A DNA stretch of 60,995 nt, taken from positions 1-60,995 of the forward strand of contig CAZNWB010000008.1 in NCBI GenBank assembly GCA_964576535.1, read 5' to 3'. Positions 52,815 to 60,995 of the stretch are shown here, one piece after another; within the stretch, counting starts at the first letter, position 1, and the number at the start of each line of letters is the position of its first letter. Below the pieces are notes generated by a model that did not search any database, was not told the DNA's origin, and saw only the letters and a program-made list of their open reading frames with translations. Position numbers and translations under genes: made by a program. Origin of the DNA: an uncultured bacterium (GTDB lineage: Bacteria; Methylomirabilota; Methylomirabilia; Methylomirabilales; 2-02-FULL-66-22).

Positions 52815-52965
52815 CGTACGCCCGTACGCCTGTACGCCTGTACGAAGGTACGCGGCCGGACCTCGCTACTCTTGCATCGCGATCTCGTGTTCTCGATTGG
52901 CACCGTATGTTCGTATCTTCGTACTCCCGTACGCTCTTGTTGGTAATTCCGCATTCCCCATCGCA
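52815..52965 (+). repeat. Composite spacer at the left boundary of the TA array
   Basis: cgtacgcc cgtacgcc tgtacgcc tract, then CGTAC tract + GCTCTTGTTGGTAA + TTCCGCA tract. Confidence 0.75.
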
Positions 52966-52987
52966 GTCGATATCGCTCTGAACCTTG

Positions 52988-53230
52988 TTACTTATACTTC
53001 CGACGAACCTCGGCCAAAGTCTTCACAAGCCCTTGAGCCTTCTGTTTCCGCGCCAATTCTATTGTCCGACGGAATTCGGGATTCTCGACGATCAGATCGT
53101 CCACTACGTCATCGTCCAATACATTCCGCACCACCAGGACCGGGTTTCCCTCAGCGGTGAGAACCAGCGGCTCTCGCTTGGCTTTCAGGATCCTCCTCCG
53201 CAATCTTTCATCCAACGTTTCGATCTTCAT
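52988..53230 (-). CDS. Orphan Phd/YefM-like antitoxin
   Basis: EPLVLT.EGNPVLVV, NPEFRRTIE.AR. Confidence 0.6.
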   Translation of the reverse strand: MKIETLDERLRRRILKAKREPLVLTAEGNPVLVVRNVLDDDVVDDLIVENPEFRRTIELARKQKAQGLVKTLAEVRRKYK

Positions 53231-53280
53231 AGTCTTCAAAGTAATTGCCCAGACAAAACAGATGGAAGTCTAAAGCCGAC

Positions 53281-53496
53281 CTACAAGGAAGAACGCGAGA
53301 CCTCTGGCAATGCAAACTCAATCTTTTTCCCCACCACCTCTGTAGCGTCGATCACCTCAATCCCGATGAGCTTACCCTCCGCGCTAAAATCCGCATGTAC
53401 ACCCGGCATCACGGTAATCGTCTTCGCCGCTTTCACCTCTGGCTCCGCAAAAGCGATATAGAGGAGATCTCGGAGCGGATCGTATTCGACCCTCAT
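53281..53496 (-). CDS. DUF2283 family protein
   Basis: MRVEYD...D.LYI.F, D....GKLIGIEVIDA. Confidence 0.85.
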   Translation of the reverse strand: MRVEYDPLRDLLYIAFAEPEVKAAKTITVMPGVHADFSAEGKLIGIEVIDATEVVGKKIEFALPEVSRSSL

Positions 53497-53741
53497 GACC
53501 TGCCCTCCATCCTGGGAAACCCCGTCCCGTACCTTGCCTTAACGGTCAGTATCATAACAGAATCATCGATCCGTTTGTAGTACACTGTGACTTCCTTCTC
53601 CTCAAAGAACTCTCCTTCCCAGAGGTTATGATATGGAAGCACAAGCACCTTTCCGCTGGTTCCCGGCTTAGAATCGCCGGCCTCCCATCCATCATTGAAC
53701 GCCCTTTCAATTTCATCCTTCGTGACCCCTCGTTGCACCAT
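53493..53741 (-). CDS. DUF4258/BrnT-like putative toxin, possibly N-truncated
   Basis: M.QRGVT.DEI, V.VYY......ILTV; ATGA overlap with DUF2283. Confidence 0.7.
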   Translation of the reverse strand: MVQRGVTKDEIERAFNDGWEAGDSKPGTSGKVLVLPYHNLWEGEFFEEKEVTVYYKRIDDSVMILTVKARYGTGFPRMEGRS

Positions 53742-53949
53742 ACGAACTCGCCTCTCCTTCCTCCACTGCCCGTACTGGCGCTGCGAATCACTTCTGACTC
53801 ACTCCGCGCGACCTCGGCGGAAATGTCCCCCACTTGAATCTAGCACACGTTCGGCCGTCTTGGCATCCCAGTCTTCTAGCTTCCCGGCCTCCCAGCCTCC
53901 AAGCCTCCTGGCATGAGGTACTCCGCAACCCGCATTCCGCATTCCGCAT

Positions 53950-54942
53950 TAGGGCTATTTACTTGACTCAACCTGGCCCCATATATAGTGTCCGGGGCCG
54001 TGATCGAGGATTACCCGCGGAAGCTCATGGAACTCGAACGGCGGTTCGCCACTGAGGACGCCTGCCGACACTACCTCTTCCAGCTCCGCTGGCCGGACGG
54101 GTCGTCTGCCCGCGCTGCGGCGGCACCCAGGCGTGGCCGATGCGCACGGGCCGCTGGCTGTGCGGGGGCTGCCGGCACCAAGCCTCGGTGACCGCCGGCA
54201 CGATCTTCCAGGACAGCCACCTGCCGCTCACCACCTGGTTCCGGGCGCTCTGGTACGTGACGACCCAGAAGCCCGGGGTGAGCGCCCTGGGCCTCCAGCG
54301 GGTCCTGGGGCTCGGGAGCTACAAGACCGCCTGGGCGATGCTCCACAAACTCCGGCGCGCCATGGTCCGCCCGGGGCGAGACCGCCTCCGGGGCACCGTC
54401 GAGGTCGATGAGACCTACTGGGGGGCCGAGGAGGCAGGGGTGATTGGCCGCTGGACCGAGTCCAAGGCCATCCTGATCGTCGCCGCCGAGGCCGACGGAG
54501 CCGGCATCGGCCGGATCCGGATGCGCCACCTCCGGGCGCTGACCCGGGCGCAGGCGCACAAGTTCATCGCCGCCGCCATTGAACCCGGCAGCGTCGTGCG
54601 GACGGACGGCCTGAACATCTACGAGGGCCTGGCGGGCTACGTCCACGATCGCCAGGTCCAACGGCAGCAACCCGAGGGGCAGCACCTGCTGCCGCGGGTG
54701 CACCGCGTGGTCTCGCTCCTGAAGCGCTGGCTCTTGGGCACCCACCAAGGGGCGATCCGCCACGAGCATCTGGACGATTACCTCGATGAGTTCACCTTCC
54801 GGTTCAACCGCCGGAAGTCCGCGTCGCGGGGGAAGCTGTTCTACCGCCTGGCGCAGCAAGCCGTCCAGGTGGAGCCGGTGCCGTTCGTCTCGCTGTCGAA
54901 GCACAAGCTGTAGTACCTGGTTGAGTGAAGTAAATAGCCCTA
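53950..54942 (+). mobile_element. IS1595-family insertion sequence (993 bp)
   Basis: 27-bp TIRs (25/27) TAGGGCTATTTACTT(G/C)ACTCAACC(T/A)GG and 8-bp target duplication TTCCGCAT. Confidence 0.92.
54000..54913 (+). pseudogene. IS1595-family transposase with a 1-bp frameshift near 54101
   Basis: LRWPDG then VCPRC in the -1 frame; Q.SVTAGTIF, VEVDETY, TDG...Y, YLDEF.FRFNRR. Confidence 0.88.
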
Positions 54943-55182
54943 TTCCGCATTGAGCCCGTACCTTGGCACGCTTTTCGTATTCCAGTCAATTCCGCATCCC
55001 TCTCCCCCTGCCGTGGTCAGTGGTCCGTAGCCAGTAGTCAGTGGTCCTTTCTCACGCAGTCTGCGACCACCTTCGTACTCCCGTACCTTCGTACGCCTTT
55101 CCCGTCAAGCGTCCAAGCGTTCCAGCGATTGTGATTCCGGCCTCCTCAGCTTTCCGCGCCCGACCCGCGGTCACGACCATGA

Positions 55183-55211
55183 TTGACATGTAACCCAAGG
55201 TGGGTTATAGA
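55183..55211 (+). promoter_or_regulatory. Sigma70 promoter with palindromic operator
   Basis: TTGACA-N17-TATAGA overlapping TAACCCA-AGG-TGGGTTA. Confidence 0.75.
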
Positions 55212-55232
55212 AGGTGTGAAAGGAGATACCAC

Positions 55233-59302: not shown

Positions 59303-59305
59303 GCC

Positions 59306-59647
59306 GTGCCTGAGCCCTCGCGCGGAGAGGTCTGGCTCGTCGATCTCAACCCCAGTCGGGGCCACGAACAGGCGGGAGTCCGGCCCGGGCTGGTGGTCTC
59401 GGTGGACCCGTTCAACCATGGGCCAGCGGGGCTTGTCGTGCTCCTGCCCCTCACAACCATCGGCAAGGGCATTCCTTTTCACGTCGAGCTGAACCCCCCT
59501 GAGGGTGGGGTGAAGGTCAAGAGCTATATCAAGTGCGAGGACATCCGATCGGTGGCCAAAGAGCGACTATCGCGCCGCTGGGGGAGAGTTTCAGGATCAA
59601 CCTTGGCGGCAATCGAAGATCGCTTGCGGATCCTTCTTGGCCTCTGA
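59306..59647 (+). CDS. mazF: PemK/MazF toxin
   Basis: RGEVWLVDLNPSRGHEQAG.RP.LVVS.D.FN, PLTT, IRSV.KERL. Confidence 0.95.
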   Translation: MPEPSRGEVWLVDLNPSRGHEQAGVRPGLVVSVDPFNHGPAGLVVLLPLTTIGKGIPFHVELNPPEGGVKVKSYIKCEDIRSVAKERLSRRWGRVSGSTLAAIEDRLRILLGL

Positions 59648-59679
59648 ATCGCCATCCAAGCCCGGAATCCGCACCAGGG

Positions 59680-59850
59680 CTTACCTTCGTACTTTCGTAC
59701 GCTCTTGTTGGTCATTCCGCACTCCGCACTTCGCATTCCGCATTCGAGACCGTACCTTCGTACATTCGTACGCTCTTGTTGGTAATTCCGCATTCCCCAC
59801 TCCGCATTCCGCATTCGAGGTCGTACCCTCGTACCTTCGTACGCCTTTGA
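59680..59850 (+). repeat. Two tandem 71-bp composite units
   Basis: GCTCTTGTTGG cores at 59701 and 59772, each preceded by a CGTACCTT tract and followed by a CATTCCG tract. Confidence 0.88.
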
Positions 59851-59914
59851 GCTGTTGGGCCTCCCATTCCTCCCTACGACGTGTTTGTTCCGATGCCGTC
59901 AAGACAAGTTCTCC

Positions 59915-59944
59915 TTGACATATCCGACACAGGCATTATAATGC
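59915..59944 (+). promoter_or_regulatory. Consensus sigma70 promoter with palindrome over -10
   Basis: TTGACA-N16-TATAAT; GCATTATAATGC. Confidence 0.8.
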
Positions 59945-59979
59945 TGGCATCATGATTCAAACGAGGAGGGAAATCTCTC

Positions 59980-60240
59980 ATGAAATCCAGAACGATGGTG
60001 TACCTGGAGTCTGAGCAGCTTCAGGCCTTGAGGGGTGAAGCGAAGACACAGGGCATTTCTCTGGCGGAACTTCTACGGCGTCTGGTGCACGCACACCTCG
60101 AGAAGCGCCACAACCTGGCTCCCGCCCCGCCAAGCGCGTTCCTAAGGCTCGTGGGATTGGGCGCCAGCGGGCGGGAGGATATTTCCGAACATCACGATGA
60201 CTACCTAGGCAAGGCTCTCCACGATGAGCATGCTGGTTGA
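59980..60240 (+). CDS. CopG/RHH antitoxin
   Basis: RTMVYL..EQ...L..EA...GISLAELLRR, DISE.HD.YL. Confidence 0.88.
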   Translation: MKSRTMVYLESEQLQALRGEAKTQGISLAELLRRLVHAHLEKRHNLAPAPPSAFLRLVGLGASGREDISEHHDDYLGKALHDEHAG

Positions 60241-60649
60241 TACCGGAGCGTGGTATGCACTCGCCGACACGTCGGACCGCCACCACGAAGAGGCTAAGGC
60301 ATTCTACGCCGAGCACGCTGCGACGACTCGCTTTGTGACCACCGACCTCATCGTCGCCGAAACCTGGTCCCTCCTTCACTCTCACCTTGGGCGGTCGTCT
60401 GCCTTCATTTTCTGGGAAACCCTGAGGGAAACGCGGATCCCAATCTTGACCGTGGAACCCGTTGACCTGGAAGCGGCCTGGCATATCGCCCAGGCCTTCC
60501 CAGACCAGACCTTCAGCTTCGCAGACTGCATGACCTTCACCCTGATGGAGCGGCTGAGAATCTACGATGCGTTCGCCTTCGACGCCCACTTTCTGGTCTA
60601 TCGGTTCGGCCCGGGACGCCAGAGGGCCTTCCGCCGCTTCCCGCGCTAA
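60224..60649 (+). CDS. vapC: VapC PIN-domain toxin
   Basis: LVDTGAWYAL...D.HH, TTDLIVAET, SFADC, AFAFD.HF. Confidence 0.93.
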   Translation: MSMLVDTGAWYALADTSDRHHEEAKAFYAEHAATTRFVTTDLIVAETWSLLHSHLGRSSAFIFWETLRETRIPILTVEPVDLEAAWHIAQAFPDQTFSFADCMTFTLMERLRIYDAFAFDAHFLVYRFGPGRQRAFRRFPR

Positions 60650-60829
60650 CCCCGATCCGAAAAAAGAGCCGAGCGTAGAATCAGCATCCCCCTGCATGCG
60701 AGGCCCCGTGGAGGGGAATACCCATGGCCTCCTATAGGGGGCCTGAGGGCCCCGCTGACCCATCCCTTCTCCGCGTCTCTCTTCGCGTCTCCGCAGGGCA
60801 TTCGGCCTCAGCGGAATTTCGGATCGGGG
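60650..60829. mobile_element. MITE-like element, copy 2 (180 bp)
   Basis: Perfect 13-bp TIR CCCCGATCCGAAA flanked by a CTAA direct repeat. Confidence 0.8.
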
Positions 60830-60995
60830 CTAACAATCACCCGCCCTACCGCATTCGAAAGGCACCTTCGTACGCCTTCGGCCTCCCAGCGTCCCAGCGG
60901 TAGTCATTCCGCATTCCCGCCGGGCCGGATGGCCCTCCCTCTGGGGCGGATGCCCCTCCGGGGCGGAGCCTGGGCCGGAGGCCGCACTTCGCATT

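Follow-up and report, generated by a model that had tools for sequence, protein, structure and literature searches.

The stretch analysed here, hereafter the window, is contig C8 (CAZNWB010000008.1, positions 1 to 60,995) of a 3.72 Mb, 204-contig assembly (GCA_964576535.1) of an uncultured Methylomirabilota bacterium from sediment. Its last part, 52788-60995, is an island of small toxin-antitoxin (TA) modules upstream of a polysaccharide exporter gene with Poly_export and SLBB domains (Pfam; 50208-52787, minus strand), a core gene that adjoins the island and has orthologues with 61-77% amino acid (aa) identity in genomes of the genus. Five intact type II TA operons are present, three of which pair a ribbon-helix-helix (RHH) protein with MazF, one AbrB with VapC, and one RHH with VapC. 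The remaining genes are two DUF2283 modules and two unnamed small open reading frames (ORFs). The GC content of the island is 54-60%, compared with ~ 65% elsewhere. A first-pass annotation of this DNA had described 52815-60995 as a TA cassette array at the head of a surface-polysaccharide gene, and Pfam matches bear out both the operons and the position.

All five operons are on the plus strand. RHH1-MazF1 occupies 55200-55863 (MazF1 at 55501-55863), RHH2-MazF2 57979-58576 (RHH2 57979-58206; MazF2 58199-58576, with its start at 58199) and RHH3-MazF3 59042-59647 (MazF3 59306-59647). In each of the three a PemK/MazF toxin (Pfam E-values of 1e-26, 8e-23 and 7e-28 for MazF1 to MazF3) follows an ORF of 75-102 aa, the arrangement of MazEF systems. 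Two further pairs resemble VapBC. One joins an AbrB/MazE domain gene (56391-56648; E 1.2e-6, also recognized by NCBIfam) to the PIN-domain gene VapC1 (56582/56645-57046) in an operon at 56391-57046, and the other, at 59980-60649, consists of RHH4 (59980-60240) and VapC2 (60224-60649); the PIN matches have E-values of 1.6e-16 and 1.1e-9. The RHH labels given in the first pass hold in part. Pfam matches are weak for RHH2 and RHH4 (the RHH_1 match in the VapBC pair, E 5e-4, is below the cut-off), and RHH1 and RHH3 have no significant Pfam or NCBIfam family match.

The other genes are on the minus strand. Next to the exporter is an 83-aa orphan ORF (52988-53239), followed by a DUF2283 module (53281-53741) in which the DUF2283 gene (53281-53496; Pfam E 1.4e-12) is overlapped from upstream by an 82-aa partner (53493-53741). 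A second module (57350-57862) contains DUF2283b (57350-57562; Pfam), a 5'-truncated fragment of its partner, the 'DUF4258b' ORF (57544-57762), and orf66 (57662-57862). The names Phd-like (for 52988-53239) and DUF4258 (for 53493-53741 and 57544-57762) had been proposed in the first pass and do not survive, as these three ORFs match no Pfam or NCBIfam family even at E ≤ 1. The truncation of the DUF4258b ORF had been missed, as had two insertion elements described below.

Pairwise identity among the three MazF proteins is 30-37%, similarity between VapC1 and VapC2 is not detectable, and the two DUF2283 proteins are 26% identical. By the divergence of their proteins, the modules are thus separate, unrelated acquisitions, as had been claimed for the MazF operons. 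It had also been suggested that each of the five plus-strand modules has its own promoter. Sigma-70-like sites are predicted upstream of four (AbrB, RHH2, RHH3 and RHH4; the site of the RHH2-MazF2 operon is at 57903-57931), but none was found upstream of RHH1. The island has five promoter-like sites in total, versus 2.5 ± 1.5 in shuffled sequence.

Repeats fill most of the space between the modules. By Tandem Repeats Finder (TRF) criteria, seven of the ten island spacers hold an array, compared with 20% of spacers genome-wide (P about 9e-4). The doubled pattern of the heptamer CATTCCG has 31 matches in the window versus 0.65 expected, and 23 of these, all on the plus strand, are within 52815-60995. 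For the octamer CGTACNNN, the doubled CGTACCTT pattern has 34 matches in the window versus 0.15 expected, of which 28 are in the island (25 on the plus and three on the minus strand). The weakest family is the octamer CCAGCCTC, with nine matches in the window versus 2.35 expected, six of them in the island. The junction repeat families of the first pass are therefore real, all being above chance, and its observation of a single prevailing orientation is also correct: the 7- and 8-nt tandem arrays of the island spacers are almost all on the plus strand. Repeat tracts take up roughly 550 of about 2800 bases of spacer in the island. The CGTACNNN arrays form mini-hairpins with a T-rich tail behind them, and might act as terminators between modules.

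The spacers differ in how they are built. Spacer 1, adjoining the exporter (52788-52987), has (CGTACGCC)x3.8 in reversed orientation at 52815-52844 and a copy of a repeat mosaic at 52904-52960. The plus-strand spacers begin with 53742-53949, where an octamer array, (TCCCAGCC)x5.4, is accompanied by heptamers, in an array of CATTCCG. The 'type B junction' (54941-55199) combines (GTGGTCA)x4.9 with CGTACNNN and GCGTCCNA octamers, and an 83% identical copy of it is found in a non-TA spacer of the window, at 39422-39557. Four arrays (AATCCGA, ATTCGAA, CGTACNNN and CATTCCG) and a promoter-like site (56351-56380) occur in 55864-56390, and 57047-57349 includes a mosaic copy made of octamers, linker, heptamers and octamers. 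In spacer 58577-59041, two octamer arrays (58672-58707 and 58773-58808; 36 nt, 86% complementary) form an inverted pair, and one copy of the mosaic and a promoter-like site (58979-59008) are also present. Spacer 59648-59979 has two 71-nt units of the mosaic in tandem (59680-59850), together with a perfect -35/-10 pair (59915-59942). The last spacer (60830-60995) has short octamer and heptamer runs, and the contig ends in repeat sequence.

The mosaic has a fixed order: CGTACNNN octamers, a unique linker (GCTCTTGTTGGTAATTCCG), CATTCCG heptamers, and octamers again. A 92-nt unit of it occurs in five island copies with 64-85% identity, two of them in tandem at 59680-59850, and the spacer copies vary in length and tile order. 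Because the unique linker, the order and the orientation are shared, the spacers were copied as units and did not grow independently. The octamer-linker-heptamer pattern occurs seven times in the assembly, five times in the island and twice on the 3.3 kb contig C187. That contig encodes an uncharacterized 217-aa protein, a caspase-domain protein, a HepT interrupted by a stop codon, with MntA, and part of a HEPN protein. Its genes are separated by island-type spacers, and genes and repeats all have one orientation. C187 is probably another piece of the array, although it does not abut C8 directly; the sequence past the contig end at 60995 resembles 54989-55100.

Two insertion elements interrupt the island. 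A plus-strand IS1595-family insertion sequence (IS) at 53950-54932, the single copy in the assembly, has a zinc-ribbon ORF (53988-54191) and a DDE transposase ORF (54140-54913; Pfam DDE_Tnp_IS1595, E 2.1e-23) in different frames, and terminal inverted repeats of ~ 37 nt that are 84% matching. It is flanked by an 8-bp duplication (TTCCGCAT, at 53942-53949 and 54933-54940), as is the rule for the family, and its target was the CATTCCG heptamer array of spacer 53742-53949. With its frame split in this way, the transposase is unlikely to be active. Related copies in a soil sequencing run (X9) have one extra base after 54100, which a run containing the same strain (X3) does not. The second element, of 180 bp (60650-60829), is non-coding, has 13-nt terminal inverted repeats (CCCCGATCCGAAA) and resembles a MITE (miniature inverted-repeat transposable element). 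Its insertion point is precisely the VapC2 stop codon, which the CTAA target duplication overlaps. At least five near-full copies occur in the assembly, including window 41244-41423 and copies on contigs C29, C40 and C28, with fragments on ~ 8 further contigs, and the related contig L052 lacks the element at this site. Another dispersed repeat of ~ 200 nt occurs at 4639-4847 and 5792-6005 of the metagenome contig L054 and on at least five contigs of the assembly (C7, C82, C6, C27 and C10).

The repeat families are not confined to the island. Across the assembly there are 291 heptamer matches on 62 of the 204 contigs, 87 matches to the first octamer on 21 contigs, and 31 to the second, also on 21. 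By TRF, arrays with a period of 7 or 8 number 768 and are built from 185 canonical units, the commonest of which, AATGCGG (60 arrays), is the island heptamer. Of these arrays, 654 (85%) are intergenic, though the non-coding share of the genome is just 16%. An array occurs in 463 of 2307 spacers (20%), whatever the spacer length, with coding regions and spacers alike delimited by a crude codon-bias gene caller rather than a standard annotator. A broader set (periods 7, 8, 14 and 16) gives 731 merged arrays on 154 of the 204 contigs. Many 7- to 8-nt arrays, overwhelmingly intergenic and dispersed over the genome, are what is seen for the short tandemly repeated repetitive (STRR) sequences discussed below. 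The genes beside heptamer and octamer loci outside the island are ordinary in size (median 268 versus 269 aa; ≤ 160 aa in 25% versus 25%).

Outside the island, arrays often form inverted pairs 50-120 nt apart, which are potential long intergenic hairpins (for example C3:55978-56068, C11:46629-46732, C44:13710-13798, and 39339-39430 and 44994-45087 of the window). How heptamer arrays are oriented with respect to the genes beside them, again outside the island, follows no consistent rule by inspection, without quantification. The 264-nt window spacer 39305-39568, with octamer pairs and the type B tile, corresponds to a 109-nt spacer with a (TCCGCAC) array in a relative (L031:5529-5638). This relative is 85% identical, and arrays thus turn over fast at fixed positions.

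Within the genus, 18 of 21 genomes contain a match to a mosaic query of 171 nt. There are seven long matches (≥ 100 nt) in other genus genomes, of which six were examined (the one in G001:C135 is not among these). Three are between TA operons (two in G016 and one in G032) and three are not; the TA-flanked fraction exceeds the expectation from a few percent of spacers, with a small n and related genomes. Separately, G032:C4:789700-793800 (L191) contains three near-identical blocks of five to eight 7/8-nt arrays, each ~ 300-400 nt long, that alternate with genes of 217, 229, and 78 + 76 aa, a second repeat-delimited array in this relative. Across many phyla, at least 120 stretches contain the exact 21-nt (CATTCCG)x3; the matches listed come from Acidobacteriota, Planctomycetota, Chloroflexota, Verrucomicrobiota, Bacteroidota, Cyanobacteria, Nitrospirota and others. 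An association of (CATTCCG)n with TA genes across phyla was considered and is not supported. By a crude longest-ORF proxy that did not use Pfam, 13% of neighboring ORFs are ≤ 160 aa versus 8% in controls 2.5-3.3 kb away, and median lengths are 368 aa versus 399 aa in control windows (120 loci, among the matches listed).

The module content of the island differs between strains and species. The relatives compared are not independent samples. Two contigs of one other metagenome, L017 and L052, are 96-97% identical to the island in shared parts. In L017 the order orf66, RHH2-MazF2, RHH3 is retained, and other arrays take the place of all that lies left of 57671. Homology to L017 and to L023 stops at 57671-57673, which marks a rearrangement scar at ~ 57671. 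In L052, a HEPN gene and a 90-aa ORF are inserted between MazF3 and RHH4, and the junction alignment places both ends of this indel inside the mosaic. The same contig has a second copy of RHH2-MazF2 after VapC2, 95.7% identical to the L017 copy, with a frameshifted toxin. This duplicated module is joined at a heptamer array and carried along the first downstream octamer array.

G032, a genome of the same genus in seven contigs, has the orthologous cluster (exporter 72% aa identity, neighbors 73-88%). A 10-kb island lies across the exporter from ours and contains genes of other families (RHH-PIN, IS200, AbiEii, two DUF433-DUF5615 pairs, HEPN, a DDE_3 fragment, MNT, AF2212-PIN and HicB), separated by the repeat families seen here. 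Two operons of our island are found at other spacers of the G032 cluster. RHH2-MazF2 (65-68% aa) is between the orthologues of window 48570-49571 and 47069-48049, and RHH1-MazF1 (82% aa; 85% nt over 55157-55854) is between the orthologues of 47069-48049 and 46110-47072; both keep their orientation relative to the cluster. Further adjacencies occur in metagenomic contigs. In L053, the 46110 orthologue is followed by AbrB-VapC1 and RHH2-MazF2; in L031, synteny with window 33987-42958 leads into RHH4-VapC2 and RHH2-MazF2; in L019 and L021, MazF1 is followed by RHH2-MazF2; and in L054, RHH2-MazF2 is on the 3' side of the exporter. Relatives of RHH2-MazF2 were found in 52 metagenome loci. Upstream of the exporter, four other genomes of the genus (G012, G015, G006 and G007) carry large genes of an ordinary kind, and 16 of 17 window-protein queries have no match in these genomes; the 17th query, MazF2, was out of frame. 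The expectation from the first pass that modules are gained and lost among relatives therefore stands.

Candidate joints in run X9, a soil sample with relatives of 90-97% identity, were not counted. Those from repeat to repeat (55047>58774, 56243>59775, 58706>59821, 58708>56165 and others) have sides of 23-38 nt that fit any repeat-bearing locus. The joint 57193>57671 (side of 38 nt) is likewise weak, and has the breakpoint common to L017 and L023. A joint at 60682>60785, present in all four runs, fits shorter MITE copies elsewhere.

So, how do the modules come and go? We think it probable that this is an ordinary hypervariable TA island, of the addiction or defence type, in which the repeat-filled spacers passively supply homology for rearrangement. 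Each TA operon was acquired independently and would have its own promoter, and copies of the mosaic spacer spread from one junction to the next in a single orientation. The co-oriented, 65-90% similar spacers may then serve as passive homology patches, without dedicated capture machinery, between which general recombination or replication slippage could delete, duplicate or swap modules. Shared repeats may also ease exchange with relatives, and IS and MITE insertions would add further turnover. The copied, co-oriented mosaic shows that spacers were duplicated together with rearrangements, and we infer that the repeats participated in the recombination. Several observations weigh against this. 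Outside the window, MazF, PIN or DUF2283 genes are not enriched near arrays, 7 of 25 being ≤ 600 bp from one, compared with 22% of random segments. The first-pass expectation that breakpoints fall inside repeats is correct for the HEPN indel and the duplication in L052, but the orf66 indel between L017 and L052 is not in repeats, the 57671 breakpoint is inside the DUF4258b fragment and outside repeats, and the homology of RHH1-MazF1 with G032 ends at the operon borders. Moreover, because repeats fill nearly every island spacer, intergenic breakpoints fall in them by default, and their location there discriminates little. Contigs of the same strain from three runs of another study have zero differences, including across several arrays and junctions. 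They reveal no rearrangement, repeat-number change or module-skipping joint; these are Logan contigs (runs X3, X5 and X8) from which rare variants are dropped, so the absence of such joints is no evidence against variants. A bolder reading is possible, though on the doubtful side: since related genomes have these repeat families in their spacers too, the mosaic spacers may be an integrase-free scaffold, a genus-wide 'socket' by which repeat-bracketed TA and defence operons are excised, duplicated and imported by homologous recombination. If so, the socket would serve small selfish operons both in the island and among the spacers of neighboring core genes. Conversely, the repeats could be bystanders, with turnover due to horizontal transfer, IS and MITE activity and illegitimate recombination, and arrays merely expanding in dispensable spacers. 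The ubiquity of the repeats with no TA link outside the island would fit, as would the breakpoints outside repeats, the presence of IS1595, IS200, DDE_3 and MITE sequences in the islands, and the different arrays that L031 holds in spacer 39305-39568, which indicate that arrays change independently of genes. We nevertheless regard this as improbable, given a unique linker and a fixed order and orientation common to the spacers, which imply duplication as units, HEPN-indel and module-duplication junctions within arrays, and TA operons flanking half of the six long mosaic matches examined, few and from related genomes as these are.

Could the spacers instead be recombination sites for a specialized enzyme? 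The first pass had proposed a dedicated repeat-mediated capture and shuffling platform, in which the mosaic spacers would be the sites at which an unknown enzyme, in place of IntI and attC, moves TA cassettes. Co-oriented spacers between self-promoted cassettes have that appearance, and cassettes were gained and duplicated at spacers in the close strain represented by L052, with the same modules at other spacers, orientation kept, in G032. Yet the repeats that compose the mosaic are present in a fifth of all spacers, beside ordinary genes, and in 18 of 21 genus genomes, and since they are the ordinary intergenic repeats of the genus they define no dedicated platform. The spacer copies, 64-85% alike with variable length and tile order, are unlike the sites of site-specific enzymes, the array is stable within the strain, and the seven tyrosine recombinase matches (PF00589) in the whole assembly include none on C8 or C187. 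A role for REP-associated tyrosine transposases (RAYT; REP, repetitive extragenic palindromic sequence) was also considered and rejected, as the island repeat families flank none of the 13 Y1_Tnp genes of the assembly, of which two have one array, unrelated, at ≤ 500 bp. In their own right these IS200/RAYT-like genes are an unusually large paralogous family, 11 of the 13 being in long open frames of 221-352 aa. We therefore consider a dedicated platform very unlikely. A recombinase beyond the unassembled end of the array is conceivable. One form of this idea, a sedentary chromosomal integron with its integrase beyond the contig end, strikes us as scarcely credible. Self-promoted TA cassettes are typical of sedentary integrons, and the end of the array is indeed unassembled in the 204 contigs. 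However, the 8.2 kb of 52788-60995 contain no attC-like complementary R-box pair (RYYYAAC...GTTRRRY; mean of 0.055 in shuffles), Rfam has no match at E ≤ 1 over 48000-60995, and in place of the imperfect palindromes of attC sites the spacers have tandem direct repeats. The first-pass statement that no integrase or attC is visible thus holds.

Sedentary chromosomal integrons of the Vibrio type have cassette arrays that include TA cassettes, and the island similarly is a long row of small, self-promoted TA operons that mostly share one orientation, with repeated separators in one orientation and a content that differs between strains. Unlike those arrays, it has no IntI on the contig and no attC sites were found in it. 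Its separators are 7/8-nt repeat mosaics that also fill a fifth of the other spacers of the genome, and two of its modules are inverted while their spacers are not.

The repeats themselves have precedents. Cyanobacterial STRR sequences are one case of genome-wide intergenic heptamer repeats. Heptamer arrays such as TAACTGA are described genome-wide between genes of Beggiatoaceae, Cyanobacteria and Bacteroidetes, and their function is reported as unknown (PMC4679880). As in those cases, we see hundreds of short, almost all intergenic arrays, several families per genome, and the same unit in distant phyla, here (CATTCCG)x3. Here, however, there are many 7- and 8-nt families, outside the island inverted pairs are common, the arrays were not seen to keep a fixed place with respect to start codons, and a multi-family mosaic has been copied inside a TA island.

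Bacterial interspersed mosaic elements (BIMEs) of E. coli and the neisserial intergenic mosaic element (NIME)/dRS3 arrays are mosaic intergenic repeats that mark recombination hot spots. A precedent for a repeat-marked TA site is the variable, REP-bearing folA-apaH spacer of E. coli, which is reported to hold ccdO157 (PMC3184786). Spacers made from few repeated tiles, variable TA presence and genome plasticity are features the island shares with REP/BIME and NIME/dRS3 systems. In contrast to their 20-40-nt palindromes, its tiles are tandem 7/8-mers, and, in contrast to REP/BIME, the Y1 (RAYT-like) transposases are not flanked by the tiles. Unrelated TA families (MazEF, VapBC, HEPN/MNT and DUF2283) together with IS elements, low GC content and rapid turnover are common to TA-rich and defence islands in general. 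What distinguishes this one is its regular, repeat-filled, co-oriented spacers, and that the same operons are scattered over different spacers of one conserved cluster in G032. A keyword search of the open-access literature found no description of TA arrays whose modules are set apart by tandem 7/8-mer mosaics.

The resemblance of the island to an integron has a simpler explanation, and arrays of this kind should not be taken for new capture systems until their repeats are proven to be locus-specific. Of modest interest is that the genus is unusually dense in intergenic 7/8-nt repeats, which occur in a fifth of all spacers. Of interest too are the assembly of these repeats into a copied, co-oriented mosaic inside a TA island, and the fact that one conserved gene cluster carries the same TA operons in spacers that differ from species to species. 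If the repeat tracts do mediate movement, they would provide a simple, recombinase-independent route for the turnover of TA and defence genes, and would point to one function of the heptamer repeats that have long lacked an explanation in many bacteria.

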